64,000 nt of DNA from Deltaproteobacteria bacterium (lineage in GTDB: Bacteria; Myxococcota_A; Polyangia; Nannocystales; Nannocystaceae). Location: assembly GCA_016709225.1 (NCBI GenBank), contig JADJEE010000012.1, positions 2,307,630 to 2,371,629 on the forward strand, given 5' to 3'. The notes under the pieces were generated by a model that was not told the origin of the DNA, searched no databases, and worked only from the letters and a program-made list of their open reading frames with translations. Position numbers and translations under genes: made by a program. This document shows positions 1,272 through 63,004 of the stretch, one piece after another (position 1 is the first letter of the stretch; the number at the start of each line of letters is the position of its first letter).

Positions 1272-3950
1272 TCACGGCGCGGGCAGCTCGGCGATCCGCC
1301 GATCGAGGCGCTCGAGACGGGCCGGGTCCGGCTCGGGCGCGGCGGCAGCGATCGCCCGCGCGCGCACGAGCAGGCGCCGACGCTCGTCCTGCTGCGACGC
1401 GAGCACGAGCACGTCGGACAGCGCCACCAGCGTACCGACCAGCTCGGGATACTCGAGTCCGTAGGCGCGCTCCTGCACCGCGATCGCACGCCGGAGCGCA
1501 CGCTCGGCCGCCACGGGCTCGTGCAGCTCTGTCAGCGCCAGGCCGAGGTCGTGCAGCGGCATGATGAGCTCGGGGTGCTCGGGCCCGAAGTGGCGCTCGA
1601 AGATCGCGACCGCGCGCTCGAGCTGCGGCCGCGCGAGCTCGGGGTGGCCCTCCTGCGCGTGGGTCAGCGCGATGTGGGCCAGCACGCTGGCGACCTCGGG
1701 ATGATCGGGGCCGTAGGCCGCCTCGAGGTTGGCCATGGCGCGCTCGTACCACAGCCGCGCGGTCGCGGGCTCGTCGCGGGCCCACCACACGTTGCCGATG
1801 TTGGACTGTAGATCGCCGACCGTCGGATGGTGCGGCCCGTACAGTCGCTCGAAGCTGGCGGCGGCCTCTTCGTAGAGCGGCATCGCAGCGTCGACATCGT
1901 CGCGCAGGAACGTGAGGTTGGCGAGCGCGGTCGTCACCAACGCCCGCTCGCGATCATCGGGCTGCAGCTGCGCGGCGGCCTCGCGGGCGCGCTCGAACGA
2001 CGACGCCGCGCCGTCGAAGTCGCGCTGCTCCAGACGCATCGCGCCATGCGCGACGAACAGCTTCACGGTGAGCGCCGGCGCGGCGCCGTGGCGATCGAGC
2101 AACGCCGACGCCAGCGCGAACCACCGCTCACCCTCGGGAACCCGCGCATCGACGTAGCCGACCTGTCGCAGCAGATCGATCGCGATGGTCGCCGCCAGCC
2201 GATCGTCACCCCCGCGCAGCGCCGTCCACAGCGCCTCCTCGAGCGCGGCCTCGCCGTCGTCGCCACCATCCTTGGTCGCGAGCTGACCGTGGATGTGCAG
2301 CGTCTCGGCCAGCAGCGGCGGATAGCCGAGCGTGCGCGCCTGCGGGAGCATCGTCGCGAGCTGCTCGGCGGCGTCGCGGGGGTGACCCGAGATGTCGGCG
2401 GCGTGGACCTGCGCGAGCTGGGCCTGCAGCGACTCGATCGCCTGGCGTCGCTCGGGCTCGGTGGGCAGCGGCGTGCGCTGGCCGAGGGTGGCGGTCTCGC
2501 TGCAGGCGTCGAGCGCAGGCAATCGTCCGACCGCCGTCACCGACTCGCGCACGGTGATGACGTCCGCCGCGGCCATGCGCGCGACCAGGGCGTCGAACGA
2601 CTGCTGCGCGCGCGCGAGGCACTGCATGCGCTCGTCGAGCACCTGCTCGGACTGCACGCCATCGATCGACGTGGCGCGGCACGCCTGGCCGTGCGCCTCG
2701 ACCCACGCACCGGCGTAGCCTTCGAGCAGCGAAGTCGTGTGGCGCAGGGCGTCCGCGGCATACGGCGCGTCGACACCCTCGAACGCGTGACGCAACGCGT
2801 CGCGCGTGGCGTCGTTCCAGCTGGGGGCGAATGCCGCTGCGGCGCCCCTGCACGGTGTTGGCGATGCGGTCGCGCGCGCGGTGAACCACGCCGCGCCGCC
2901 GGTCGCACCGAGGGCGACGGCCGCGATCGCGAAGCGACGCCGCCGTGCTCTCGGATCGCGCGAGAGGCGGTCGAGCAGCGCCGACAGCGACGGGTGACGC
3001 TCGTCGACGCGCTTGGCGAGCCCCCGACGCAGCAGCGGCCACACCCACCGCGGCACGCGACCATCGGCCGGCGGGGGCTCGGGCTCGCGCTCGCACACCG
3101 CGATGACCAGGGCCGTCAGCGAGGCCGCGCGGAACGGACGCACGCCATAGAGCGCCTCGTAGAGCGCGACGCAGAACGCAAACTGGTCGGCGGCCGGGCC
3201 CGGCTCTCCACCGAGATGTTGCTCCGGCGCCATGTAGGCCGGCGTGCCCGCGCGTCCATCATGCACGCTGGTCTCGCCGCTGCCTCGAGCACCGGCGTCG
3301 GTGGGCGGGACCTCGTCGGTCGGCTCCATTCCCGACGAGCGATCGAGCACGCGGGCGAGCCCGAAGTCACCGACCCGCGCCCGTCCATCGCGCCCGATGA
3401 GCACGTTGTCGGGCTTGAAGTCGCCGTGCACGATGCCGGCGTCGTGGGCTGCGACCAGACCGCGCCCGGCGTCGAGGTACATCGCGACGATCTCCGACCA
3501 CGTGCGCTCCGGCGCGCGCTGCCACTGCGTCAGCGTGCCGCCGTCGATCTGTTCCATCGCCACGAAGACGCGGCCACCGATGGTGCCGACGTCGTGCACC
3601 GTCACGACGTTGGGCGAGGTGAGCCGCGCCATGGCCTGGGCCTCGCGCAGCAGTCGGCGGCCGCCGGCCGCTCCCGCACCCCCGCGCGCATGCAACAGCT
3701 TGAGCGCGACGGCGCGGTCGAGCTCGGGGTCGAACGCCGAGTACACCACGCCCATCGCGCCGACACCGAGCGTGCCGTGCACGACGTAGCGACCGAGCTG
3801 GCCGTGCAGCTCACCCGACGCGGCAGGCCCACGCTCGCCGCGCGCGGTCGCGTGCTCGTCGCTGGCGTGCGTCTCCTCGAGACTTCGCGGATCGGATCGC
3901 ACGTCATCACGCGCGTCCCCGCCCTCGCCGTCCGTGCCGCCCACGCGCAT
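1272..3950 (-). CDS. Eukaryotic-like Ser/Thr protein kinase with C-terminal TPR repeats
   Basis: Glycine loop LGVGAMGVVY, lysine motif AVALK, catalytic loop HGDFKPDNVLI, and DFG/APE-like motifs (DFGLAR, PAYMAPE) are all present. The C-terminal half is tandem TPR-like repeats (repeated LxNLAxxY and YERAL motifs). An ATG sits at the minus-strand start. Confidence 0.9.
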   Translation of the reverse strand: MRVGGTDGEGGDARDDVRSDPRSLEETHASDEHATARGERGPAASGELHGQLGRYVVHGTLGVGAMGVVYSAFDPELDRAVALKLLHARGGAGAAGGRRLLREAQAMARLTSPNVVTVHDVGTIGGRVFVAMEQIDGGTLTQWQRAPERTWSEIVAMYLDAGRGLVAAHDAGIVHGDFKPDNVLIGRDGRARVGDFGLARVLDRSSGMEPTDEVPPTDAGARGSGETSVHDGRAGTPAYMAPEQHLGGEPGPAADQFAFCVALYEALYGVRPFRAASLTALVIAVCEREPEPPPADGRVPRWVWPLLRRGLAKRVDERHPSLSALLDRLSRDPRARRRRFAIAAVALGATGGAAWFTARATASPTPCRGAAAAFAPSWNDATRDALRHAFEGVDAPYAADALRHTTSLLEGYAGAWVEAHGQACRATSIDGVQSEQVLDERMQCLARAQQSFDALVARMAAADVITVRESVTAVGRLPALDACSETATLGQRTPLPTEPERRQAIESLQAQLAQVHAADISGHPRDAAEQLATMLPQARTLGYPPLLAETLHIHGQLATKDGGDDGEAALEEALWTALRGGDDRLAATIAIDLLRQVGYVDARVPEGERWFALASALLDRHGAAPALTVKLFVAHGAMRLEQRDFDGAASSFERAREAAAQLQPDDRERALVTTALANLTFLRDDVDAAMPLYEEAAASFERLYGPHHPTVGDLQSNIGNVWWARDEPATARLWYERAMANLEAAYGPDHPEVASVLAHIALTHAQEGHPELARPQLERAVAIFERHFGPEHPELIMPLHDLGLALTELHEPVAAERALRRAIAVQERAYGLEYPELVGTLVALSDVLVLASQQDERRRLLVRARAIAAAAPEPDPARLERLDRRIAELPAP

Positions 3951-7659: not shown

Positions 7660-8097
7660 TCACATTCGATCGATGCCGCCCTTGGCGATGATCGCCCCGG
7701 CGACATCGAAGAACGACGCGACGCTGTCGCTGTGATCGCCGCGGATGTGCTTGCCGGCCTTGGTCAACGGGAACGCGGTGATGTCGGCCGCCGGCAGGTG
7801 CACGCCGGGTCCACGCTCGGCATCCTCGCGCCACTGGCCGCCGTAGACCGCGACCATGCACTCGCCGACGAATGCACCGATCGCCAGCGCCATGCGATCG
7901 CAATCATCGGCGGACCACAGCGCCCGGTTGGCTTCGATGTAGCGATCGACCGCGGCGACCCCGGCGTGATCGTACTCGAGTTCGATGCCGACCCGCGCCA
8001 GCGTGCGCACGAGACCGTCGGCGTGATCGCGGAGCTGTCGACGCACGGCATCCATCGAGGGTGACGGTACCGCGACGGCGTGCGCGAGGGGGCGCAT
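7660..8097 (-). CDS. Hypothetical protein
   Basis: C-terminal ~145 aa of track ORF 7660..8364 (MRPLAHAVAVPSPSMDAVRRQL...). Codon usage looks coding. An alternative ATG lies at 8055. Confidence 0.4.
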   Translation of the reverse strand: MRPLAHAVAVPSPSMDAVRRQLRDHADGLVRTLARVGIELEYDHAGVAAVDRYIEANRALWSADDCDRMALAIGAFVGECMVAVYGGQWREDAERGPGVHLPAADITAFPLTKAGKHIRGDHSDSVASFFDVAGAIIAKGGIDRM

Positions 8098-9909: not shown

Positions 9910-10694
9910 CGCGGGAACACGACGCAGCCCGGCAGCAAGAGGTGTACTGGGAGGCCTTCGCCCGCTCGCTCACGCCCACCGCGGCCGATGCCGAGCGCGT
10001 GCGCGCGGGTCTGCTGCGTCGCCTCGCCCAGGTGCGCCCGGTCGCCCAGGAGCCGGCTGCTGCGTCGCCGCGCGAGGCTCCGCGCGCGGCCGCAGCGGTG
10101 GTGTTGTTCGCGAAGTCGGCGGCGATCTCCGTCGGTCTCGCGGTCACGGCCTTGGGTGGGCTGCACCTGGGCGCTCGCGCCTTGTCGCCGACGCCCGCCG
10201 AGCTGCCGACGCGCGTGGCGACGGCGACCGAAGTGCCTCGCGGTGACGCGCCGATACCGTCGCGTCGCGTCGTCGAGCCGCCGGCACCCGCGACCTCGCC
10301 CTCGCTCGCACCGGTGACACCGACGCTGGCCCCGCAGGCGACACCGACCACGCGAACGACCGCGCGCGCCCCCGGCAGTACGTCGGCGCCGTCGCGCGGC
10401 GGCGAGGCCGTTGCGGTAGCGATGGCACCGGCCGACGCACTGCAGCAAGAGCTCGCGCTCGTGCGCAGCGCTCGCGAGGCGATCGCCGCCGGGCGCCACG
10501 CCGACGCCGACGCGCCGCTGGCCCGTCACGCGCAGCAGTTTCCCGACGGTGCACTCGCGCCCGAGCGCGAGGCCTATCGAGCGATCGTCGCGTGTCGGCT
10601 CGGGCGTGGCGACGCCGGCAAGCGGGCACGCGCCTTCGCACAGGCACACCCGACGGCATCGCTGCTGGGCGAAGTGAACGCAGCGTGCGAGTGA
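9906..10694 (+). CDS. Membrane-anchored anti-sigma factor (putative)
   Basis: The ATG overlaps the sigma stop (ATGA). A cytoplasmic N-terminus is followed by one TM helix (AAAVVLFAKSAAISVGLAVTALGG) and then a Pro/Thr/Ala-rich periplasmic domain. Confidence 0.6.
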   Translation: MTREHDAARQQEVYWEAFARSLTPTAADAERVRAGLLRRLAQVRPVAQEPAAASPREAPRAAAAVVLFAKSAAISVGLAVTALGGLHLGARALSPTPAELPTRVATATEVPRGDAPIPSRRVVEPPAPATSPSLAPVTPTLAPQATPTTRTTARAPGSTSAPSRGGEAVAVAMAPADALQQELALVRSAREAIAAGRHADADAPLARHAQQFPDGALAPEREAYRAIVACRLGRGDAGKRARAFAQAHPTASLLGEVNAACE

Positions 10695-14508: not shown

Positions 14509-15102
14509 ATGCCCACCAAGAAGCCCTCCGAGGCCGCCGATGTGATGCTCGCCGGCTTCACCGTCGAGCAGTGGAAGCAGCACATGGACCAGGACGAGGA
14601 CTGGACCGAGCGCATCGAGGGCGCCGACGCAGCCGCCGTGCGGGGCATCGTCGAAGCGCTCGCGCACGCGAACGCGGACGTGCGGCTGCTGGCGTGCAAT
14701 CTGATCTACGCGCTCGGGGCCGACGGCCTCGGGGTGCAGGGCGATGCCGCAGTCACGCGGCTCGCCGAACTCGCGGCGAACGAGCCGAAGGTCAAGCTGC
14801 GAACGCGGGCGCGGCTGGTGCACGAGGCGGTCGCGCAGGCGCAGCAGCGCGCCGCGATCCACCGCGAGTTCCCTTGGCTCGGCGACAGCTCGGGTGACGC
14901 CGCCGCGCAGGCGCTCGCTGCCCTCGACGATGCGCGCGCACGCGTGCGCCTGCACGTGTATCTGTGGTGGGTCAACGCCGCCAAGCCGGCGGCGGCGTCG
15001 CGCACCGCGGCGGCGCAGAAGCTGACGGCGCTGGTCGAGCGCGAGAGCGAGCCCGAGCTGCGCCAGGCCGCTTCGCTCGCGCTCGCGCGGGTGCGAGGCT
15101 GA
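14509..15102 (+). CDS. HEAT / PBS-lyase-like repeat protein
   Basis: Repeated helical motifs (AAVRGIVEALAHANADVRLLACNLIYALG; RLAELAANEPKVKLRTRARLV). ATG at 14509. Confidence 0.5.
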   Translation: MPTKKPSEAADVMLAGFTVEQWKQHMDQDEDWTERIEGADAAAVRGIVEALAHANADVRLLACNLIYALGADGLGVQGDAAVTRLAELAANEPKVKLRTRARLVHEAVAQAQQRAAIHREFPWLGDSSGDAAAQALAALDDARARVRLHVYLWWVNAAKPAAASRTAAAQKLTALVERESEPELRQAASLALARVRG

Positions 15103-15326
15103 GCGGCCGCGGACGGGCCGGCGGGGCCGACTGCGCGCCGATCCGAACGAACACCGCACACGCTGCGGGGTGGCGGGACTTGCGGAGCCCGCGTCGAGCT
15201 GACATGCTCTCCCGGTTCGTCGCGGTGGATGTCGTCTTGGGTCGTGTTCGACCCCGCGCGGCGAGCGTCGTCTTGGTGCCCATGTCGATGGGCCTGCCCT
15301 TTGGATGGATGGAAAGGTTGGATTTG

Positions 15327-17111
15327 ATGAAGCGCGCAGCATTGTTTTCCAGTGTGATCGCAGCTGCTCTCCTCGCGATGCCCCGCGAGGCCGAGGCCTG
15401 TGGCGGCACGTTCTGCGACACCGGGCCGAACGCGATGCCCGTGCCGCAGACCGGCGAGAACATCCTGTTCGCGATGGGTGAGGGCTACACCGAGGCCCAC
15501 ATCCAGATCCAGTACGACCCCAACACCGAAGCCGCGAAGTTCGCGTGGGTGGTGCCCATGACGGCGCTGCCGGAGTTCTCGGTCGGCTCGCAGACCCTGT
15601 TCACGAACGTGCTCGCCAGCACCGTGCCGGCCTACGGCTTCAACTACACGTTCGACAGCTGCGGCGACCAGGGCAACTCCAGCGGTCTCACGGGTGGCGA
15701 CGGCGGCGGCGATCCAGGTGGCACGAGCGCGGGTGATGAAACCGGCGGCGAGACCGGCCCCGAGGTGATCCTGCACGAGACCGTCGGCGCGTTCGAGATC
15801 ACCGTGCTGCAGGGTGGTACCGCCGAGGAGGTCATGACCTGGCTGGGCGACAACGGCTATCAGCAGGATGCGGCAGCCGAGCCGATCCTCGCCGAGTACC
15901 TGGCGGAGAACTACATCTTCGCTGCGTTCAAGCTCACCAACGGCGCCGAGATCGGCGAGATCCACCCCATCACGCTGCGCTTCGCCAACGACGAGGCCTG
16001 CGTGCCACTGCGGCTGACGCGGATCGCCGCCGAGGAGGACATGGAGGTCCGCACCTTCTTCCTCGCCAACGACCGCGTGGTGCCGCAGAACTACAAGCAC
16101 GTGCTCGTGAACCCGCTCGAGCTCGACTGGCCCAACTTCGCCAGCAACTACAAGGAGATCATCACGCTCGCGGTCGATGCGTTCGGGGCCGACGGCAAGG
16201 CCTTCGTGACCGAGTACGCCGGCCCGTCGTCGGTCGTGAACCCGAGCGGGATCTTCGACGCGAGCTGGTCGCCCGCGGCGTTCGAGGGCCTCGATCCCAT
16301 CGCGGTGGTCGACACGCTGTCGTCGCAGAACCTGATGTTCTGCGACGAGTTCAACGGCTGCGTCTTCATCCATCCGCTCATCGAGGGCCTGCTCGCCCAG
16401 TTCCTGCCGGTGCCCGACGGCCTCGGCCGTGACGAGTTCTACGGCTGCCTCAGCTGCAACGAGGCGATGATCGACACGATGGCGTGGGGCGACGGCTCCG
16501 GCTTCTCGACCGCGATGCAGGAGCGCATCGTCGCGCCGGGGCAGCACGCCGCCGATCTGCTGGCGGAGTTCCCCACGCTCACGCGCATGTACACGACCAT
16601 CTCGCCCGCCGAGATGACCGAAGATCCGTTCTTCTGGCAGAACCCGGACCTCCCGCCGGTCGACCTCACGGCCTCGCTCGCGACGCGTCGCATCTTCTGC
16701 AACGGCGATGCGCTGTGGACCCTGCCCGATGGCAAGGAGGTGCTGGTGCCCGACGACGGCGCATGGCCGGACTTCGGCGACGAGATGCCCTACGTCGAAG
16801 AGATCGCGACGACGCCGGCCAACGGCGCACCGATCGCGATCGTCGACAACCGCACCTCGATCCAAGGCCAGCTCGACACGTACAACTGCGCGCTCGGCTA
16901 TCCCGCGACCACCTGCGGTGACAATGCCGACACCTCGGGCGGCTCGGCCTCGGGCGGCTCGGCCTCGGGTGGCGATTCGAGCGGCAGCGACACCGCGGGC
17001 GAGAACGACGACAGCGGCTCGGGCTGCGGCTGCAACAGCGGTGGATCCACCTCGGGCGTGCTGCTGCTGCTCGGCGCGATCGCGCTACGACGCCGTCGCC
17101 GCGATCGGTAG
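15327..17111 (+). CDS. Secreted protein with a MYXO-CTERM sorting signal
   Basis: Signal peptide MKRAALFSSVIAAALLAMPREAEA with GGAAAGG upstream. The C-terminal GCGCNSGGSTSGVLLLLGAIALRRRRRDR is a textbook MYXO-CTERM. A Gly/Ser-rich linker precedes the tail. Confidence 0.75.
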   Translation: MKRAALFSSVIAAALLAMPREAEACGGTFCDTGPNAMPVPQTGENILFAMGEGYTEAHIQIQYDPNTEAAKFAWVVPMTALPEFSVGSQTLFTNVLASTVPAYGFNYTFDSCGDQGNSSGLTGGDGGGDPGGTSAGDETGGETGPEVILHETVGAFEITVLQGGTAEEVMTWLGDNGYQQDAAAEPILAEYLAENYIFAAFKLTNGAEIGEIHPITLRFANDEACVPLRLTRIAAEEDMEVRTFFLANDRVVPQNYKHVLVNPLELDWPNFASNYKEIITLAVDAFGADGKAFVTEYAGPSSVVNPSGIFDASWSPAAFEGLDPIAVVDTLSSQNLMFCDEFNGCVFIHPLIEGLLAQFLPVPDGLGRDEFYGCLSCNEAMIDTMAWGDGSGFSTAMQERIVAPGQHAADLLAEFPTLTRMYTTISPAEMTEDPFFWQNPDLPPVDLTASLATRRIFCNGDALWTLPDGKEVLVPDDGAWPDFGDEMPYVEEIATTPANGAPIAIVDNRTSIQGQLDTYNCALGYPATTCGDNADTSGGSASGGSASGGDSSGSDTAGENDDSGSGCGCNSGGSTSGVLLLLGAIALRRRRRDR

Positions 17112-31697: not shown

Positions 31698-33055
31698 CAC
31701 GTTGCCATCCCTTCGAGTCCATCCTCGGAGACACCGAGTTCGATTGTGTGACCCGGCCCCGAAGGGTCGCGGTCGCGTCCGGTGCGGGGCTCATCGATCT
31801 GCACCGGCCCGGCGGCCCGCAGCGCCGGATCGGTGTGCTCGCGAATCAAGCGGAAGAGGCCGTGCGCGAAGGCCTCTGGGCCCGCCGCCGCAACCTGTTC
31901 GACGCGCTCGCGCAGCCCCATGCGGTCGAGCTCGAGCGCGCGATGATGACAGTAGGGGTTGTTGCCGGGGCGCCCGAGCAACGGCTCGCTGGTCGCCGTG
32001 CAGCCGGCCATGCAAGTCGAGGCGTAGTAGCACTCGCGGCAGTAGCCCCACAGGTCGTCGAGCGTGCGGCGCTCCACGTAACGCATCGGCTCCGCGCCTT
32101 CCCACAGCGCGCGCAGCCCGTGCTCGCGCCAGCTGCCCCCGGTGTTGGTCGGCCCGCCCAGGCTCGGACAGCTCTTGATCGCGCCGTCGGCTTCGATGCC
32201 GATGCCGGTGAGGCCGGCCTGACAGCCACGATAGTGGGCGCCCTGGTTCTGCGACTGGCGCAGCTCGTGCTCGACCGGGCCGAAGTAGCCGAGGTTGTTG
32301 CCCGGCCAGATCCGGATGCCGCGTGCGCGTGCGCGCGGGATCATCTCGTCGAGCATCGCGAAGACCTCGAGCAGGTCGTAGGGCTGCAGCAACAGCTCGG
32401 GGTGATCCGCTGCGTTGCCGTGCGGCATCGTCAAGAACATCTGCCACGCGCGCACCCCCGCGTCGGCGAGCAGCTCGGCGAGCGCGGGCAGATCGTGGCG
32501 GCTCTTGGCGTTGATCTGGCTGTTCGCCCCCGTCGAGATGCCCGCGGCCTGGGCATGGCGGAGCGCCGCAAAGGCGCGGCGCCATCCGCCGGGCGTGCCG
32601 CGCAGCGCGTCGTGGCTGGCTTCGAGCCCGTCGATCGACACCGACACGAACTGCAGACCAGCCTCGACCAGCGCGTCCGCACGGGCGCGAGTGAGATTGA
32701 GCCCACCGGTGACCATCGATGCCTTCATGCCGGCCTGCCGAATCGCCCGGATCACGAGCAACACGTCGGCACGCAGGTAGGCCTCGCCGCCGATCAGGTC
32801 GACCTCACCGACACCGAGCTGGGCGAGCTCTTCGACGAGCTTCAACGCCTCGTCGGTGGTGAGCTCGTCGGGTCGAGCACGACCCGCGCGTGGCCCACAC
32901 GCGACGCACTTCTGATCGCACGCGAGCGTGAACTCCCAGACCGCGAGCTTCGGCGTCGGTCGCTCGCCCGGCGCCAGCGGTCGAGCCCAACGCGTACCCG
33001 AACGCGGCAACGATGCGACGATGGGAAGCCGACGCCGCATCTGCTCGAACCCCAT
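31697..33055 (-). CDS. Radical SAM enzyme with a C-terminal SPASM domain (peptide/protein-modifying maturase family)
   Basis: CxxxCxxC (LACDQKCVACG) plus the SAM-binding GGE-like motif (DLIGGEAYL). The C-terminal SPASM cysteines are present (CPSLGG...GYCRECYYASTCMAGC...NNPYC). Candidate starts are a GTG at 33088 and ATGs at 33055 or 33040. Confidence 0.85.
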   Translation of the reverse strand: MGFEQMRRRLPIVASLPRSGTRWARPLAPGERPTPKLAVWEFTLACDQKCVACGPRAGRARPDELTTDEALKLVEELAQLGVGEVDLIGGEAYLRADVLLVIRAIRQAGMKASMVTGGLNLTRARADALVEAGLQFVSVSIDGLEASHDALRGTPGGWRRAFAALRHAQAAGISTGANSQINAKSRHDLPALAELLADAGVRAWQMFLTMPHGNAADHPELLLQPYDLLEVFAMLDEMIPRARARGIRIWPGNNLGYFGPVEHELRQSQNQGAHYRGCQAGLTGIGIEADGAIKSCPSLGGPTNTGGSWREHGLRALWEGAEPMRYVERRTLDDLWGYCRECYYASTCMAGCTATSEPLLGRPGNNPYCHHRALELDRMGLRERVEQVAAAGPEAFAHGLFRLIREHTDPALRAAGPVQIDEPRTGRDRDPSGPGHTIELGVSEDGLEGMAT

Positions 33056-33143
33056 CGATGACGATGGTGAACGCGCCACCGGGATCACGCAAGCGTTTTG
33101 TTCGCTAAGTTGGCAAAGCTTGAGTTGGTTCGCAGTCCGCCGC

Positions 33144-35811: not shown

Positions 35812-36114
35812 GCGACGCTGAGGCCGTCGCCCGCCGGGACATGACCGCCCGCGTCGGCGCAAAGCCAGCGCGGGGACCCACCTTCCCGACCGCCGATCGC
35901 GTGCGGGCGACTTGCGCCTAAACGATGGTTTGATCGCGAGGATCTGGTTTGTGGCCGAGCGGCCATCGACGCATGCGAGCCGCCGGAGATCGACGCTGCC
36001 CACGTCGTCGAGCATCGACCTCACGCGCGCACGCTACCATCGTCAACGCGCGGCGAGGTTTGCCCGCGCTCGGGACCCGCTCCGATCCACTGCGGGCATC
36101 ACCAGGGGGTAGCG

Positions 36115-38097
36115 ATGAGACCGATCGTTCCGACCGAAGCTCGCCTGTCCACGACCCAACCCGCTGCGAGGATCGCCACGATCCCGCGCCCGAGCCCCAA
36201 CTCGCGACTGCGAGTGATGCTCGCCACCGACAAGGAGATGGCAGAGTCGCTGAAGAACCTGTCCGCGTTGCCGCGCGGCGAGGGCTTCGGCGTCACACCA
36301 GACACTGCGCGCGCGCTCGTGATCGCGACGCCGCGACCGGGCACCCGCACCGACGAAGGCGTGGAGCCGCCGGGCGGCTTCGTCGCCGAGGCGATCGTGC
36401 TCGACCACGCGCGGCCGTCATTGCTCGTTCGCAACGGCCGCATCTCACTGCCGACCTCGGCGCTGTGGCGCCAACGACTGCAGCCGCACTCCTTCGAACT
36501 CGAGCAGAGCGTTGCCGCGGTGGGCCGCATCGAGCTGCTCAACCACGACTCGCTCGACTGGATCGGCACCGGCTGGGCAGTCGGTGACCGCGCCATCGTC
36601 ACCAATCGACACGTCGCGCTGCACTTCGCGCGCAAGAAGGGACGCGGCTTCGCCTTCGTGACCAACGCGCGTGGCAAGACCATCGGCGCGCGCGTCGACT
36701 TCCGCGAAGAGCACCGCACTCGCAAGGTCAACGAGGTCGGGGTGGAGAAGATCCTGTGGATCACCGCCGACAGCAGCAAGCAGCCCGATCTCGCACTGCT
36801 GTGGCTATCGAACTCCGCCCATCTCCCCGACCCGATCCCGCTGTCGACCCGCAAGCCGAAGAAGGGCGCCTACGTCGGCGTGGTCGGCTACCCGGCCCGC
36901 GACAGCCGCAACGACTCCGATCTGATGTCGGAGATCTTCGGCGACATCTACGGCGTCAAGCGCTTCGCGCCTGGCATGGTCACCTCGGTCTCGAAGGGCT
37001 TCTGGTTCGGACACGACGCGTCGACCCTGGGCGGCAACTCGGGCTCGCTGGTGCTCGACCTCGAGTCGGGCAAGGCTTTCGGCGTGCACTTCGGCGGCAA
37101 ATTCCACGAGGAGAACTACGCCGTGAAGGCCGACACGCTCAAGCGCCTGATGAGTCGCGCGAAGGTGTCGAGCAAGGCCAAGGCGCCCACGGTCGAGGAG
37201 GAGGCCGTCAAGGACAGGCCGCGCGAGGCCTCGTGGTTCGAGGATGGGCGCGAAGGCTACGATCCGAAGTTTCTCGGCAACACCGCTGCGCATCGTGTGC
37301 CGCTGCCGCGGCTCGGCAAGTGGGCGAGCAAGGTCGTGAAGCGAACCGGCGCGCGCGGGGCCAACGCTCACGTCCTGCCGTACACCCACTTCTCGGTCGT
37401 GCTGTGCCGCACCCGCAAGCTGCCGCTGTACGCCGCCGTGAACATCGACGGCAACGAGCTCTTCAAGATCGTGCGCAAGGCCGACCGCTGGTACTTCGAC
37501 CCGCGCGTCCCGCTCAAGTACCAGACCGGCAACGAGGCCTACAGCAACAACGCATTCGATCGCGGCCACATGGTCCGGCGGCAGGATCCCGTGTGGGGCA
37601 CGCGCGCGACCGCGACCGTGGCCAATGGCGACACGTTCCACTACACCAACGCCGCGCCGCAGCACGATTCGATGAACCAGGAGACATGGTTGTCGCTCGA
37701 GGACTACGTGCTCGAGAATGCGGCCGCCTACGGCCTGCGGGTCACCGTCTTCAACGGCCCGGTCTTCGCCGACGACGACCCCAAGTACCGCAATATCCGC
37801 CTACCGCAGCGCTTCTGGAAGATCGCGGTGCTCGTCGACGAAGATACCGACCGCCTCTCGGCCACCGGCTACCTGCTCACGCAGGTCGACGAGGTTGCCG
37901 ACACCACCGACGAGTTCGTCTACGGCCAGCACCGCACCTACCAGGTGCCCATCGCCCACATCGAGAATCTCACCGGTCTCGGCTTCGGCAAGCTCGCTGA
38001 GCACGATCCGCTGCGCGACGTCGAGATCGTCGAAGGTCGCGAGCAGGCGACGATGCGCCCGATCGAGCGCGGCGAAGACATCGTGTTCTCGCGGTGA
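36115..38097 (+). CDS. Cytoplasmic fusion protein: trypsin-like (V8/Glu-specific-type) serine protease + DNA/RNA non-specific endonuclease
   Basis: A GGGGG lies 6 nt upstream of the ATG. There is no signal peptide. The protease triad context is present: TNRHV (His), PDLALLWL (Asp), TLGGNSGSLVLD (Ser). The C-terminal Endonuclease_NS hallmarks are present: FSVVLCRTRKLPLYAAVNI, DRGHMVRRQD, NAAPQHDSMNQETW. Confidence 0.85.
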   Translation: MRPIVPTEARLSTTQPAARIATIPRPSPNSRLRVMLATDKEMAESLKNLSALPRGEGFGVTPDTARALVIATPRPGTRTDEGVEPPGGFVAEAIVLDHARPSLLVRNGRISLPTSALWRQRLQPHSFELEQSVAAVGRIELLNHDSLDWIGTGWAVGDRAIVTNRHVALHFARKKGRGFAFVTNARGKTIGARVDFREEHRTRKVNEVGVEKILWITADSSKQPDLALLWLSNSAHLPDPIPLSTRKPKKGAYVGVVGYPARDSRNDSDLMSEIFGDIYGVKRFAPGMVTSVSKGFWFGHDASTLGGNSGSLVLDLESGKAFGVHFGGKFHEENYAVKADTLKRLMSRAKVSSKAKAPTVEEEAVKDRPREASWFEDGREGYDPKFLGNTAAHRVPLPRLGKWASKVVKRTGARGANAHVLPYTHFSVVLCRTRKLPLYAAVNIDGNELFKIVRKADRWYFDPRVPLKYQTGNEAYSNNAFDRGHMVRRQDPVWGTRATATVANGDTFHYTNAAPQHDSMNQETWLSLEDYVLENAAAYGLRVTVFNGPVFADDDPKYRNIRLPQRFWKIAVLVDEDTDRLSATGYLLTQVDEVADTTDEFVYGQHRTYQVPIAHIENLTGLGFGKLAEHDPLRDVEIVEGREQATMRPIERGEDIVFSR

Positions 38098-38125: not shown

Positions 38126-38722
38126 TCACGGCTCCGGGCCCCTGTCTCGGGCCAACGGCTCACGCCATCGCGCCACCGCGGTGTATGAGCCCTGGGCCAG
38201 CTTCGCGAGATCGATCGTCACCTCGCCCGGGTGCCGCGCCACGTCGAGCACGCCCATCACCGACCCCTGGGTCGACAGGGCGATCGCGACCAGGCGGTGC
38301 ACCTCGGGGATCTCCGTCACGACGATCTGGCACTCGTTCACGCCCGGCACCACCTCGACCGTCCCGAGCCCACGACTGCTCAGCTCCCATGAACGTCCGA
38401 GCCACTTGAGCAGGCCGTTGGGGTTGCGACCGAAGATGCGCAGCGCGCCGTCGAAGAGCGCGGAGTACAGACTGTTGTCGACGGAGCCGACCACGTAGCG
38501 CCGCCAGAAGTCGAGGTACTGCTCGGTGCCCGCGATCTCGAGGTGCGCGCAGTTGATCGACACGAGCGCATCGCTCGGGATCCATGCCAGCTTGCCGCTA
38601 CGGCGGATGCGCTCGACCGCCTCGGGCGCAACCGCAGCCAGCACCGCGGCCCCGTGCGGCAGCCGTTCGAGGGCCGTCAGCACCCCGTGACAGACGGCTC
38701 CGCGAAATGCCAGCTTGGGCAC
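38126..38722 (-). CDS. Myxobacterial paralogous-family protein (DUF2378/TIGR02265-like, tentative)
   Basis: Homologous to the 49144..49695 product (KLAWIPSDALVSI versus KTEWYPYAAFVQL; shared W...RY pattern). The GTG start is chosen to give about 198 aa. No other motif was recognised. Confidence 0.5.
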   Translation of the reverse strand: MPKLAFRGAVCHGVLTALERLPHGAAVLAAVAPEAVERIRRSGKLAWIPSDALVSINCAHLEIAGTEQYLDFWRRYVVGSVDNSLYSALFDGALRIFGRNPNGLLKWLGRSWELSSRGLGTVEVVPGVNECQIVVTEIPEVHRLVAIALSTQGSVMGVLDVARHPGEVTIDLAKLAQGSYTAVARWREPLARDRGPEP

Positions 38723-41066: not shown

Positions 41067-42188
41067 TCACACGAAGGCGAGATGCTGCGGCTCCACGCCG
41101 TCCGGTCGGCGCAGCTGCACGAGGTCCTTCTGCACCGCGTCGAGCGCCTCGTTGACCTTGTGCTGTAGACACAGCGAGCCGCACATCTTCTGGGCATTGA
41201 AGCTCGGCGAAGCCAGGTGGTTCATCACCTCCCAGTAGCGGTCGCTGGCCCAGATGTCCTTGAAGCGGGTCTCGCAGATGTTGCCGATGTGGAACTTCTT
41301 ATAGCGCTCGTTGAAGAGCATGCCGCACGGCGCGACCAGCCCCGAGCCCGACAATTGGATCATGAAGGGCGGGCCGTAGCAGCGCTGATACGAGCGCTTG
41401 CCCTTGGCCTCGATCTTCGACCACTTGACCACGACCTTGTACGTGTCGTCGGACAGGGCCTCGGCGGCACGCAGCTGCTCGTAGATGCGGTCGTAGGCGG
41501 CGTAGTCGACGCCGAGCTCGCCGTCCTCGGAGTCCGAGCAGTGCTTGAGCACGAGGTAGTCCGGCCGCAGCTCCTGCCCGAGACGCGCCAGCGGCAGGAT
41601 CTGATCGCCGTACTGCGGCATCACCACCATCTGCATCCCGATCGTCACCGGCAGCGCGTCGCGCTGCTTGATCTCGACCATGTCGCGGATGTTCTGGCAC
41701 ACCTGATCGAACCACGACTCGCGCACGCCCATGATCTGGGCGTAGCGCTCGCGTTCGCCGGCGGAGATGTTCACGCGCAGGTACGTCAGGTGGGGCAGAA
41801 TCTCCTCGAGGCGCATGCGCGTGAGCGCGAGCCCGTTGGTGCCGACCGCCATCGAGAGCCCGAGCTCGTGGCCGTAGCGGACCGCATCGGCGAACACCGG
41901 CGAGATGGTGCTCTCGCCGTCGGACACGAAGCTGATGCCGCGCACGCCGATCTCGGCGCAGTCCTCGAGGAAGCCGAAGATCACGTCGCGGGTGATGACC
42001 TTGCGGTCGTTCTCCTGCAGCATCGCGTAGCAGTACTCACACGCGAAGTTGCACGCGCGGGTCAGCGCCATGTCGATCGTGATCGGCGCGATGCGTTCGC
42101 CGCGGAGCCACGCGTCGACGCGGTCCTGGTGCCACGCGATCTTGGTGCCGTCGAGGATCAGATCGGTGTGTTCGGTGAGGCCGGTCAT
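41067..42188 (-). CDS. Radical SAM enzyme (second; sugar-pathway-associated by context)
   Basis: CNFACEYCY (CxxxCxxC) at residues ~45-53, SAM motif ISFVSDGES, and additional C-terminal cysteines (CYGPP..APCG..C..C). The ATG is at MTGLTEH. The first 110 codons of the track ORF are Arg-rich filler. Confidence 0.8.
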   Translation of the reverse strand: MTGLTEHTDLILDGTKIAWHQDRVDAWLRGERIAPITIDMALTRACNFACEYCYAMLQENDRKVITRDVIFGFLEDCAEIGVRGISFVSDGESTISPVFADAVRYGHELGLSMAVGTNGLALTRMRLEEILPHLTYLRVNISAGERERYAQIMGVRESWFDQVCQNIRDMVEIKQRDALPVTIGMQMVVMPQYGDQILPLARLGQELRPDYLVLKHCSDSEDGELGVDYAAYDRIYEQLRAAEALSDDTYKVVVKWSKIEAKGKRSYQRCYGPPFMIQLSGSGLVAPCGMLFNERYKKFHIGNICETRFKDIWASDRYWEVMNHLASPSFNAQKMCGSLCLQHKVNEALDAVQKDLVQLRRPDGVEPQHLAFV

Positions 42189-42195
42189 GGGATGC

Positions 42196-43413
42196 CTATG
42201 GGTTCGGGGCCACCACGGCGAGCCGCCGCAGCTTGTTTCGATCGCGCACCTCTTCGAGGTAGATCTCGAGGCGCGGATCGATGCGCTCGTGCAACGTTCG
42301 CTCGAGCACCATGCACAGCGCGGGCTTGTCGGGCCCGTCGAGCTCGCCGCACAGTCGCAGCACCAGACGAACGTCGAACTCGATCGACACCAGGCTGGCG
42401 TCGCCGGCCTCGCCACCGTGGGCCAGCGCGAAGTCCTCGAGCACCTCTTCGACCGCCTGACGACGCGCCGCGGCGCCCATCGCCGACCACGTCTCCCGCG
42501 GGCCTTCGTCGAACTCATTGGTGCGTTCGCGATAGTCGTTCAGCTCGCGGTAGCGCGAGAGGCACGCACGCACGAGCTTGGTCGGGCGCACAAAGGCCTC
42601 GCTGGACGCCCGCGGCGTGACGATGCCGGGCACCGGGGGCGCGCTGTCGCGTGCGCGCAGCTGGTGTTCGAGCCGGATGGCGCCGTGGTCCGCGGCCTCC
42701 AGCAATGGCAGCCCCTCGATGATGCGGCACAGCGACTCCATCATGCCGACGTCCTCGGGCGCGCTGGCACCGAAGAAGCCCGCCTCGTCGACGATGTGCG
42801 AGTCTGGATCGACTGCGAGTGTGAGCATCATGGCGTCGTCGGTGGCGGCAACCAGCCGACGACCGCTGCGCGTCGCGAGCTGACGCGCATGCCAGGGATC
42901 GGCGGCCGCAGACGCGAGCGCGTCCGCGTAGGGCGAGCCGTTCGACGGCGGCGCTGCGACCGGCGCCGGGCCGTGCGGATCGACGTTGCCGCGCCGGGGG
43001 CTGCGCGACGACGGGAGCGAGCGCGCGCCGCCGGTCTCGGCCAGCGCAGCAGCGTGCATCGAGCGCACGAGCACGGTACAGCCGCGGTCGTCCTCGACCA
43101 GGCTCGCTGCGCCGAAGCGCGCCGCCATGTCGAGCACCGCGCCGCGATCGATGCCCCGCAACGTGGCATCGTCGAGGTGGATCGCGAGCTGCTCGCGTCC
43201 GGCACAGGCGGCCGCGTCCCACAGATTGCGCAGGCTCGTGACGAGGTCGTCGTCGGGCACCCACAGCGCCAGCTCGGCGGCGGCGGGCCCGAAGCCCCGC
43301 AATCGATCGACGAGTCCCACGCGGTAGTCCTCGACCAACGCGAGGTAGTCGAGCACCTCCGACGTGGTTGTGTCATCGGCGGACGGCGCAGACGGCTGCA
43401 GGGACACTGTCAT
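42196..43413 (-). CDS. Hypothetical protein (two-domain, acidic C-terminus), co-operonic with a radical SAM gene and a DegT aminotransferase gene
   Basis: The ATG overlaps the upstream DegT stop (ATGA). Its stop lies 8 nt before the radical SAM start. No motif was recognised. Confidence 0.55.
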   Translation of the reverse strand: MTVSLQPSAPSADDTTTSEVLDYLALVEDYRVGLVDRLRGFGPAAAELALWVPDDDLVTSLRNLWDAAACAGREQLAIHLDDATLRGIDRGAVLDMAARFGAASLVEDDRGCTVLVRSMHAAALAETGGARSLPSSRSPRRGNVDPHGPAPVAAPPSNGSPYADALASAAADPWHARQLATRSGRRLVAATDDAMMLTLAVDPDSHIVDEAGFFGASAPEDVGMMESLCRIIEGLPLLEAADHGAIRLEHQLRARDSAPPVPGIVTPRASSEAFVRPTKLVRACLSRYRELNDYRERTNEFDEGPRETWSAMGAAARRQAVEEVLEDFALAHGGEAGDASLVSIEFDVRLVLRLCGELDGPDKPALCMVLERTLHERIDPRLEIYLEEVRDRNKLRRLAVVAPNP

Positions 43414-60393: not shown

Positions 60394-62697
60394 TCACTCG
60401 CAGATCTGGGCCATGCCCATCGCAAACGTCGCCGTGGCGCCACCGCCGTCGATCATCACCTGACCGACGGACGACACCGTGACCGTGGCCTTGCCGGTCA
60501 CATCGACGACGCCACCGTCGACCGACACGCACGTGGCGCTCTCGAGCATCAGGGCGGTCACGCCTTCGATGGTGGTCGACGGCGCGCGCAGACGCGCGGT
60601 GCCGTCGAGCGTCAGCCGGCTGTCCATCACCTGTGCGCGCACCTGCGTGGAGCTGTTGAGCAGCGCGCCGGCATCGAGCTTCAGGCCGCTGGCGGCCGAG
60701 GTCAGCGTCGTGGTGGTGCCGAACATCGTCGCCTCGCCCGGCTGCAGCAGCAGCGAAGCGTCGGCGCCCATCAGCTGCAGCTTCGGCGTGTTCACGACCA
60801 CGCTGTCGGGCTTCATGACGATCGACGAAGCGCCGCACACGATCTTGATCTCGTCGCGCACGGTGATCGCATAGGTGCCCTGCACGGAGAGCTCGGCGCC
60901 GGGGATCCCCGGTGCCTGCACGTCGCCGCCCTTGCCTGCCCCGCCCTGGATCACCGTGCGCAAGCTGCCGGCGATCTCGAGCGACTCGTTGCCGCCCACG
61001 CTCCGCCCGCGATCGCCGTCGACGTGGATGGTCTCGTGGCGATCGATGGTGGTGCCGCGATCGCGACCGACCTTCTCGGTCTCGTCGACCCCGACCGAGC
61101 GCGTGCTCGAGGCCAGCACCACCTCGTCGAGGTTGCGTTGCGCATGCAGGTAGATCTGCTCGTGACCGGCCGCGTCCTCGAACGACAGCTCGTTGAAGCC
61201 ATCGGAGTCGGGCGTGCTACGGGTCTTGAGCACCGTGCGGGTCTTGTCGTCGGGCAGCGCGCGCGGGGGCTGGTTGCGACCGTTGTAGACACAGCCGGTG
61301 CACAGCGGCCGGTCGACGTCGCCGTCGATGAACGTGATGACCACCTCCATACCGATGCGCGGCAGGAACACGGTGCCGAAGCCCGGACCCGCCATCGACT
61401 GCGCCACGCGCACCCAACAGCTCGGGGCCGAACCGTCGCCGCGATCCTTGGCGTGCTGGTCCCAGTGCATGCGCACGCGGATGCGACCGTGCTCGTCGAC
61501 GTGGATCTCCTCGCCCTCGGGGCCGACCACGGTGGCCGTGTGCACGCCGCTGATGCGTGGCTTGTGGCCCCGCCGTCGTGGCCGGAACACCGCGGTCGCG
61601 GGCACGCACGAGAAGTGGTTCTCGTGGTGGGTCGCACCGCCATCGCGCTCGGGCTGGGTCATGCGGTGGTCGACACGGGTCACCAGCCAGCTCGCGTCCG
61701 ACGCGGGGTTGGCCATGCCGCCGAGCTCGACGACCTGTCCGACCGCGAGCCCGACCACCGTGCTCGCGCCGTGGGCGTGGCGGCCGCGCAGGATGTCGCG
61801 CTGCAGCTCGAGCTCTGCGCGCCACGGCGTGCGATCGGGCCCGACCGCGGGGTCGTCCTCGTCGACCGCTGCGAAGACGCCGTGCTCGAAGCTCTCGTAG
61901 GTCGGTGGATCGTGGTCGCCGATCTCCGCGTAGATGACGTCGTCGTCGCCCGCGCGCCAGCGTTGCTCGAGGTAGCGCACGCGCTGCGGGCGGGGCTCGG
62001 CGTGGTCGGCGAACGCATGCACCGTCTCGAGCTCGAGCATGCCGCCCTGCTGATCCGGCGCGCGCAGCTGCAGCGTGTCGGGCACGTCGGCGAAGGCGAA
62101 GGAGCGCCCCTCGTCGATCAGCTGCAGCACCTCGGCGCCGGCCGCCTGATCGTGGAAGAAGTGCGCCGTGATGCCCTCGTCCTCGAGCAGGCGGTGGATG
62201 AAGGCCAGGTCGCTCTCGCGGTACTGCACGCAGTAGTCGTGGACCGGGTGCTCGCCGAGCTTCGCGACGTCGATCTTGCGCTGCGTCCGCTCGAAGGTCG
62301 GCGCGACGATGGCCTGCACGATCTGCGGCACGCTCATGCCCTGGAAGATCCGCGATCGTCGGCCGACGTCGAGCAGCGCACAGGCGGGCCCGACCGACAG
62401 CCCCAACACCAGGCCCTCGCGCGTGCTGCCCAGCACCGCCGCCTGGCGCACCACGCCGAACATCGTGCGGATGTCACTCTCGCGCCCGAGCGTCAGCTCG
62501 ACATGGGCGCCCAACAGATCCTCGAGCTCGACGGTGTGATCGACCAGCAGTTCGAGCTCGATGGCGTAGGGCCGCGCGAGCTCCTCCGTGATCCGCACCC
62601 GCCGCACGGTGGTCGCAAACGTGCTGCTCTCGCCGGCGATCGTGCGCAGCTCGACGCGCCACTGCACGGGCTCATGGGTGACTCGGGGGTCGCTCAT
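60394..62697 (-). CDS. vgrG: Type VI secretion spike protein VgrG (TssI)
   Basis: About 767 aa with the gp27-like N-terminus and gp5 OB-fold, and the VgrG C-terminal beta-helix with repeated VxxG motifs (VHVDEHGRIRVRMHWD...; C-terminal ...TVSSVGQVMIDGGG). The ATG is at MSDPRVTHE. Confidence 0.85.
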   Translation of the reverse strand: MSDPRVTHEPVQWRVELRTIAGESSTFATTVRRVRITEELARPYAIELELLVDHTVELEDLLGAHVELTLGRESDIRTMFGVVRQAAVLGSTREGLVLGLSVGPACALLDVGRRSRIFQGMSVPQIVQAIVAPTFERTQRKIDVAKLGEHPVHDYCVQYRESDLAFIHRLLEDEGITAHFFHDQAAGAEVLQLIDEGRSFAFADVPDTLQLRAPDQQGGMLELETVHAFADHAEPRPQRVRYLEQRWRAGDDDVIYAEIGDHDPPTYESFEHGVFAAVDEDDPAVGPDRTPWRAELELQRDILRGRHAHGASTVVGLAVGQVVELGGMANPASDASWLVTRVDHRMTQPERDGGATHHENHFSCVPATAVFRPRRRGHKPRISGVHTATVVGPEGEEIHVDEHGRIRVRMHWDQHAKDRGDGSAPSCWVRVAQSMAGPGFGTVFLPRIGMEVVITFIDGDVDRPLCTGCVYNGRNQPPRALPDDKTRTVLKTRSTPDSDGFNELSFEDAAGHEQIYLHAQRNLDEVVLASSTRSVGVDETEKVGRDRGTTIDRHETIHVDGDRGRSVGGNESLEIAGSLRTVIQGGAGKGGDVQAPGIPGAELSVQGTYAITVRDEIKIVCGASSIVMKPDSVVVNTPKLQLMGADASLLLQPGEATMFGTTTTLTSAASGLKLDAGALLNSSTQVRAQVMDSRLTLDGTARLRAPSTTIEGVTALMLESATCVSVDGGVVDVTGKATVTVSSVGQVMIDGGGATATFAMGMAQICE

Positions 62698-63004
62698 CGG
62701 TGGGATCCTCGATCGAAGGGCGGTGGGCGACCGGCCATGGCCGCCCCCCTCGCTGCTGCCCGTGCCGGACCTGGTCGCTCGCCGCGCCGAGGGCCGTGCA
62801 GGCGCCATGCTGCATCGCCGGGTCGTGCCCGCCAAGGGGGCGCGCGGCCGGGGGCTCGGCCGCAGCGTGGGTGCTCGGGCATGCCGGTGGCCGGTCGACC
62901 CGCGCGTGCCGGCGCTTGCACGCCGGCCAAAGACGTCGCCCCGCGGGTCAGGCATGCGAGCGGGGCAGCCGGCGCGAACACAAACCATGCCCGCGTCGAT
63001 GCGA

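Follow-up and report, generated by a model that had tools for sequence, protein, structure and literature searches.

The protease-nuclease fusion and its described relatives

Proteins combining a trypsin-like protease with an endonuclease are known from three-gene, NLR-like operons. In Caulobacter crescentus, the LypABC operon (Banks et al., Nat Microbiol 2026, PMC13236601) encodes LypA (592 amino acids, aa), which has CARD, trypsin and pseudo-ATPase domains, the NLR-like LypB (1,027 aa), and LypC (662 aa), in which a trypsin-like peptidase (aa 1-335) is followed by an endonuclease (aa 354-662). The protease activity of LypC is needed for LypABC-mediated lysis, and overproduction of LypABC is toxic; LypC serves gene transfer agent (GTA) release, not phage defence, and is encoded outside a defence island. 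Three-gene CARD-NLR operons, which include an effector fused to a trypsin-like protease, defend against phage and are enriched near defence systems (Wein et al., PMC10312443). The activation of pro-nucleases by proteases is an established defence principle, with trypsin/metallo-beta-lactamase (MBL) pro-nuclease pairs found in Hachiman, AVAST, Lamassu and DRT, as well as the caspase-nuclease Canu (Tuck et al., Science 2025, PMC12799240). The coupling of Trypsin_2 to the group of Endonuclease_NS domains considered here was recorded in a survey in 2017 (PMC5714182). The present analysis concerns a gene for a 660 aa LypC-type fusion of these two domains, at 36115..38097 (forward strand, stop codon included) of a 64 kb stretch of a Nannocystaceae genome (contig JADJEE010000012.1), referred to below as the window.

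An earlier note on this DNA had taken the architecture to be undescribed, but it is that of Caulobacter LypC (PMC13236601) and of the CARD operon effector (PMC10312443), and the domain coupling was already evident in 2017 (PMC5714182). The interest here lies in the widespread solitary, or orphan, state of such genes, of which the window gene is one ordinary example: the LypC-type protease-nuclease has so far been studied only within a three-gene NLR-like operon.

Homology places the window protein in the LypC family. A BLASTP alignment with the homologue from C. vibrioides CB15 (P0207), colinear as far as the C-terminus, covers query aa 75-658 at 37% identity (E = 3e-111), with S309, H485 and N521 of the window protein equivalent to LypC S296, H471 and N505. 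Genes for a 592 aa Trypsin_2 protein and a 1,027 aa AAA_16 protein lie upstream at the CB15 locus, as in Banks et al, which identifies P0207 as LypC. The two proteins share the same length and architecture (trypsin-like peptidase, flexible linker, Endonuclease_NS), and both are leaderless and encoded outside a defence island. They differ in their N-terminal leaders and in their genomic setting, as LypC comes from the third gene in the operon that also encodes LypA and LypB, whereas the window gene is solitary, with neither partner present in 64 kb. No LypB relative was detected in the window by tblastn with two LypB-like queries (E ≥ 0.025), the Pfam annotation of the flanking genes being without an NTPase, and LypA-like queries similarly revealed no LypA relative (E ≥ 0.09).

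Distribution and genomic context of the family

The fusion is both conserved and widespread. There were 2,260 matches among the scored candidates, almost all of them approximately 600-660 aa in length with both domains, and 1,367 clusters (at 50% identity) were obtained at E ≤ 1e-30. Relatives occur in at least 573 GTDB species, distributed over the Myxococcota, Acidobacteriota, Chloroflexota, Planctomycetota, Pseudomonadota, Actinomycetota, Bacteroidota and Verrucomicrobiota; entries from Asgard archaeal metagenome-assembled genomes (MAGs) are also among the family matches, and full-length copies are found on 14 plasmid records. Essentially no family member, and no full-length homologue, could be found in 50,697 phage records and 2.9 million viral contigs, and on this ground a phage origin of the gene was rejected.

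Clustering of all open reading frames (ORFs) up to 6 kb from the gene covered 86 sequences, consisting of the window and 85 fetched loci; three of the latter are copies of one Nannocystaceae gene, leaving 83 distinct public homologue loci. In this comparison of homologues, which the earlier note had proposed, the fusion is conserved and two neighbours recur: a LypA-like trypsin of approximately 590 aa with a Trypsin_2 domain, and an AAA_16/NACHT-like STAND NTPase of approximately 1,030 aa. LypB-like STAND and LypA-like trypsin genes adjoin the homologue at 16 of the 83 loci, in most cases directly upstream and on the same strand, and a Myxococcales MAG homologue with 44% identity sits in such a LypAB-type operon. 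Considering only loci that could be evaluated, having at least 6 kb of sequence on both sides of the gene, LypAB is present at 10 of 45 and absent from the other 35. No instance is observed at the 18 evaluable loci where the homologue is at least 41% identical to the query.

The ratio of nonsynonymous to synonymous substitution rates (dN/dS) among three solitary Nannocystaceae orthologues is 0.20 for the gene as a whole, 0.11-0.12 for the nuclease and 0.19-0.22 for the protease, and this purifying selection indicates that the gene is not a decaying remnant. Most members of the family are solitary, and purifying selection acts on both of the active sites, which means that the described operon covers only a minority of the biology of these proteins. 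The orthologue in two Nannocystaceae MAGs is 85% identical at the nucleotide level and yet has different neighbours, with nucleotide homology extending from approximately 50-80 bp 5' of the ATG to the stop codon. A DUF2330 gene that lies 20 kb from the protease-nuclease gene in the window (14964-17108, forward strand) has a homologue with 68% nucleotide identity directly 3' of the protease-nuclease gene in the related MAGs (L006:12204-13526 and L001:9399-10714). This implies that the gene moves as one unit or was rearranged as such.

A functional connection between this module and STAND NTPases is strengthened by gene fusions. Single chains combining STAND, Trypsin_2 and Endonuclease_NS domains were found (P0317, P0339 and P0302), while P0335 has trypsin, STAND, trypsin and Endonuclease_NS domains in one chain, including the LypA-like protease; these giant versions are 1,646-2,277 aa in length. 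Elsewhere, a sensor (TPR-S) and an additional trypsin domain are fused to the module (L088:7001-10417), and in one version a caspase gene comes before the homologue. Genes for S8 and C1 peptidases are recurrent neighbours in other clades, and the Endonuclease_NS subfamily is found repeatedly beside several classes of protease (S1, S8, C1 and C14). Relatives that are either in lypABC/CARD-NLR-like operons with a STAND NTPase or fused to one link the family with cell-death systems of the abortive infection type, in keeping with what the earlier note had suspected. Searches with PADLOC-DB 2.0, a library dating from 2023 and preceding CARD-NLR models, gave matches at the level of the protease only ('nacht' PDLC03010 at aa 83-338, E = 8.9e-21; RT-Protease_XI, E = 1.8e-7), and its models did not recognise the LypA- and LypB-like partners.

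Several individual homologue loci show further variation. A C-terminal S8 subtilase is fused to the module at L017:9977-13543, and an N-terminal Amidase_2 (peptidoglycan amidase) domain apparently so at L042:9068-12535, the ORF boundaries being heuristic in both cases. In a Myxococcales lypB-type operon (L087:248-2737) there is a second effector, in which the EAIV..RP pre-protease/trypsin module is combined with an LCAT-like alpha/beta-hydrolase and no nuclease. The homologue of Gemmata sp. G18 (L004) is flanked by two small ORFs, one of 76 aa (7664-7894) and one of 87 aa (9946-10209), in a cluster with two S8 peptidases, DUF3616, Exo_endo_phos, deaminase and patatin genes that looks like a conflict island.

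A solitary homologue of 642 aa, with the same two domains and 45% identity to the query, is present in the Pseudomonas aeruginosa record NZ_CP133752.1 (L090:7782-9710). This record is labelled a plasmid, yet carries cyoBCDE and ilvA and looks chromosomal. The homologue is apparently PA1327, an uncharacterised gene labelled 'probable protease', the identification being based on gene order and an Arg at residue 245 rather than on a match of accessions; this residue lies in a conserved GYPARDSRN motif and corresponds to R262 of the query. The orphan form raises the questions of how a leaderless, non-specific nuclease is tolerated without an inhibitor and of what activates it, and the P. aeruginosa gene makes both testable in a model organism.

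Active sites, localisation and candidate regulatory segments

Pfam searches place Trypsin_2 (E = 4.7e-14) at aa 151-324 and Endonuclease_NS (E = 2.2e-49) at aa 412-625, while an NCBIfam search of the 660 aa protein returned nothing useful. The motifs quoted in the earlier note are all present: TNRHV (aa 163-167), PDLALLWL (aa 224-231) and GGNSGSLV (aa 306-313) in the protease, and DRGHM (aa 482-486) and NAAPQ (aa 512-516) in the nuclease. An alignment of 65 sequences shows complete conservation of D225, S309 and S311 in the protease and of D482, G484, H485, N512, N521 and E529 in the nuclease; H166 of the protease is present in at least 90%. The assignment of the nuclease, for which the DRGH histidine had been regarded as critical, is thus upheld both by the invariance of H485 and by the Pfam match to Endonuclease_NS. 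N521 and E529 are, we presume from the LypC alignment and the sequence of Serratia nuclease, the counterparts of the Mg-site residues N119 and E127 of that enzyme. According to the GxSGx rule, and to the alignment in which S309 matches LypC S296, it is S309 and not S311 that acts as the protease nucleophile.

The trypsin-like (S1B-like) serine protease domain, with the triad H166/D225/S309, extends over aa 141-345 (36535..37149), and the beta-beta-alpha-Me nuclease domain, with D482-R483-G484-H485, N512, N521 and E529, over aa 379-625 (37249..37989). An alignment-based AlphaFold2 (AF2) model, with a predicted local distance difference test score (pLDDT) of 84 and a predicted template modelling score (pTM) of 0.62, was matched by Foldseek to the S1B proteases SplE and Esp and to the nucleases EXOG, Serratia nuclease, NucA and EndoG. 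Similarly, phmmer searches of PDB sequences returned glutamyl endopeptidases and NucA (1zm8/2o3b, E = 1e-11), as well as EndoG and EXOG. The DRGH...N...E catalytic set and the beta-beta-alpha-Me fold are therefore shared with Serratia nuclease, NucA and EndoG; however, these are secreted, compartmented or neutralised by an inhibitor (NuiA in the case of NucA), whereas the window protein is cytoplasmic, is fused to a protease and has no inhibitor gene.

A hydropathy scan found no signal peptide, lipobox or transmembrane helix in the 660 aa protein, the maximum 19 aa Kyte-Doolittle mean being 0.99, which bears out the earlier note on this point; the protein contains a single Cys. The same scan detected a hydrophobic N-terminus in none of 120 homologues, such that Sec/Tat signals are not a feature of these relatives either. 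Judged by its sequence, the fusion protein is leaderless and cytoplasmic. No small ORF with a coding signal follows the gene on the same strand, as had been pointed out previously, the next gene being convergent. Across the homologues, BLAST clustering (E 1e-6) identified no conserved small immunity or inhibitor ORF adjacent to the gene, and an all-against-all phmmer comparison of 1,034 ORFs, each 35 aa or longer and no more than 700 bp from a homologue gene (threshold 1e-3), detected no family common beyond close relatives. This speaks against the gene having a dedicated immunity protein or inhibitor.

The segments outside the two catalytic domains differ greatly in their conservation. The N-terminal leader (aa 1-88, 36115..36378) is poorly conserved, ranging from 42 to 96 aa across homologues with a dN/dS of 0.29-0.36. 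Its first 25 residues are disordered (pLDDT <50), and these are followed between aa 31 and 71 by three short helices (aa 31-38, 40-47 and 62-71); judging from the AF2 secondary structure this is not a six-helix bundle, and the region has no Pfam match, so that there is no clear sign of a CARD or death-fold domain in the protein itself. By contrast, the pre-protease segment (aa 89-140, EAIVL..ARPSLLVRNG ... VGRIE, 36379..36534) is a hallmark of the family, in which E92, I94, R100, P101, G137 and R138 are invariant. It is common to solitary and STAND-linked homologues and to the trypsin-abhydrolase effector at L087, and falls inside the match to the PADLOC model PDLC03010. The interdomain linker (aa 346-378, 37150..37248), a candidate processing site, is predicted to be flexible, with a pLDDT of 59-64 that drops below 50 at aa 357-365; it varies in both sequence and length (26-52 aa), and has the highest dN/dS in the gene (0.35-0.47). 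The possibility of a charge-biased, DNA-mimic-like linker was rejected, as the median net charge is 0 and linkers are not consistently acidic. In the C-terminal tail (aa 626-660, 37990..38094), which has an acidic-hydrophobic end (..GEDIVF), D631 is invariant and E637 nearly so, and a [DE]-hydrophobic-x-hydrophobic motif (such as ..DIVF or ..DLVL) is found within the last 10 residues of 53 of the 65 homologues. This motif could be a docking or autoinhibitory peptide; along with the variable linker and the conserved pre-protease segment, it is a candidate regulatory element.

A proposed latent cell-death effector and the evidence for and against it

By analogy with LypC, the window protein would be a latent cytoplasmic cell-death effector combining a protease with a nuclease, and a solitary member of its family; we put the probability of this at roughly 0.55. 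This reading is supported by the requirement for the LypC protease in lysis and the toxicity of overproduced LypABC, by the anti-phage activity of CARD-NLR operons and by the principle of protease-activated pro-nucleases. It is also supported by the homology to LypC, the linkage and fusion to STAND NTPases, the protease-level PADLOC matches, the conserved active sites, the low dN/dS, and the lack of either a secretion signal or an immunity ORF. The patchy distribution across more than 8 phyla, the plasmid copies and the different flanks of relatives that are 85% identical are also consistent with such a role. The earlier idea of a toxin or abortive infection effector is, on this evidence, reasonable.

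According to this model, the newly made protein would be latent and tolerated by its producer, with no immunity protein required. A danger signal would render the protease domain active, which would then cut its targets, possibly including its own variable linker; subsequently the nuclease would degrade nucleic acid, and the cell would be killed or arrested in an abortive-infection-type suicide. In operon-linked relatives, the signal would come from the NLR-like ATPase and the CARD-bearing protease, while in this genome the sensor would be encoded elsewhere or the protein triggered autonomously. A more speculative and rather doubtful extension is that solitary LypC-type proteins in general, apparently with PA1327 among them, are autonomous single-gene death switches, the protease with its pre-protease segment and tail sensing a trigger and licensing the nuclease, or else trans-activated 'executioners' of distant NLR sensors, which might be likened to caspase-3 plus CAD in one chain.

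Both classes of described defence system offer partial parallels. The Azospirillum-type three-gene CARD-NLR operons (PMC10312443) also have an effector fused to a trypsin-like protease, and the same module elsewhere carries an alpha/beta-hydrolase (L087), but their CARD-protease and ATPase genes are absent from the window locus, and no defence island surrounds it. The pairs of Tuck et al. likewise employ a protease and a non-specific DNase as the cell-killing output of unrelated sensors, and share with the window protease module its PADLOC RT-Protease matches; in these, however, an MBL nuclease with gating insertions is encoded by a separate gene, whereas the window protein has an Endonuclease_NS domain in the same chain, with no such insertion visible relative to NucA.

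A number of observations weigh against a latent effector of this kind. The nuclease activity of LypC is dispensable for lysis in Caulobacter (PMC13236601), and hence the only experiment on this family gives the nuclease no role. No conserved cleavage motif could be found in the linker across homologues, and the phmmer alignment with NucA shows no insertion that would block the active site. At the window locus itself, tblastn and the Pfam annotation of neighbours reveal no sensor or partner in 64 kb, and the surroundings, comprising histidine kinases, radical SAM enzymes and a lipoprotein, are those of ordinary chromosome rather than a defence island. The scarcity of LypAB across the evaluable loci, and in particular its absence from all 18 in the query's clade, implies that the operon paradigm may not transfer to this clade. 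The P. aeruginosa homologue has ilvA on one side and a LysR gene on the other, and the R245P substitution in PA1327 is the sole change in a P. aeruginosa mutant that resists phage and adheres poorly; this phenotype is not as predicted for the loss of a defence gene, and fits a physiological role better.

Accordingly, a non-immune function is a serious alternative, though distinctly less probable than a latent effector: the protein may be a regulated factor for self-lysis or DNA turnover that employs the machinery of LypC, though not against phages, acting for example in developmental autolysis of a myxobacterium, in the release of extracellular DNA or gene transfer particles, or in remodelling of the matrix or surface. 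LypC, the only characterised member of the family, functions in GTA release from outside a defence island, and the surroundings of both the window gene and the P. aeruginosa locus are housekeeping-like. The PA1327 substitution, which is associated with poorer adherence and with resistance to phages that depend on Psl, and the apparent fusion of the L042 homologue to a peptidoglycan amidase domain, would also suit such a function. However, the evidence from PA1327 consists of a single mutant without complementation. Furthermore, the spread over phyla and plasmids is patchy and resembles horizontal gene transfer, as is typical of conflict genes, and the repeated association with STAND NTPase, caspase, CHAT, patatin and TPR-S genes is equally characteristic of them.

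It is improbable that the gene is a functionless orphan left by the loss of lypAB. The partners are indeed absent from the window, and related operons do exist in other Myxococcota, but the dN/dS of 0.20 between three solitary orthologues (0.11 in the nuclease), the intact catalytic residues and conserved full-length frames, and the predominance of the solitary state across phyla are difficult to reconcile with decay.

Export as an antibacterial toxin, through a type VI secretion system (T6SS) or another non-Sec route, seems less plausible still. The earlier note had raised this option because of a vgrG gene, which is real (60397-62988, minus strand, with Phage_GPD, Phage_base_V and Gp5 C-terminal domains in Pfam), and Endonuclease_NS domains are found in polymorphic toxins (PMC5714182). 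However, this gene is on the opposite strand, 22 kb away and behind more than 15 unrelated genes, and there is no recurrence of VgrG, Hcp or PAAR genes around the 83 homologue loci. The protein lacks any PAAR, MIX, Rhs or adaptor domain recognised by Pfam, and the partners of the family are cytoplasmic STAND NTPases. Exported nuclease toxins almost always have an immunity gene, and no conserved one is present here.

The least credible proposal, an extracellular nutrient-scavenging nuclease-protease comparable to Serratia nuclease or Anabaena NucA, recommends itself through a nuclease domain closest to NucA in sequence and to Serratia nuclease in fold, but can be dismissed almost entirely given the lack of a signal peptide in the query and 120 homologues, the single Cys, the absence of a NuiA-like inhibitor gene (from neighbour Pfam annotation and the comparison of neighbouring ORFs), and the cytoplasmic partners and fusions.

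Gene boundaries and other features of the window

The single 660 aa ORF with a ribosome binding site that the earlier note had reported is well supported. It starts with ATG and has a coding-like GC content at third codon positions (GC3) of 0.87, in surroundings of approximately 70% GC; a Shine-Dalgarno-like AGGGGG (36104..36109, forward strand), read directly from the sequence, lies 5 nt before the ATG, and the annotated start in MAG GCA_017996215.1 (contig JAGOHL010000023.1) corresponds to 36115. The frame is open back to 35845, but an earlier start codon was rejected because the orthologues and the MAG annotation begin at MRPIVPTEAR and nucleotide homology begins just upstream of the ATG. 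Consensus scans for promoters and terminators around the gene gave no match, and inverted repeats upstream of it are unremarkable.

The upstream neighbour, 303 bp distant on the same strand, encodes an 823 aa lipoprotein with a weak M19-like match. Downstream, a convergent ORF without a Pfam match (38126..38722/38947, minus strand; 198 aa in the MAG annotation, up to 273 aa) begins 29 bp past the stop codon; its GC3 of 0.82 is borderline, and it is not syntenic in L006 or L001. Other neighbours encode two PAS histidine kinases, a CBM96/MopE protein and two radical SAM/SPASM enzymes. The latter (31700-33088 and 41070-42518, both on the minus strand) lie on either side of the locus, less than 10 kb from each other, and may be peptide-maturation enzymes. 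The vgrG gene is accompanied by genes for FG-GAP/ASPIC, He_PIG and multihaem-cytochrome-like proteins, and none of the other ORFs scanned in the window was recognised as a T6SS core gene. Towards the start of the window, a gene on the minus strand (1275-3950) encodes an 892 aa fusion of a Ser/Thr protein kinase with TPR; such fusions are typical of myxobacterial genomes.

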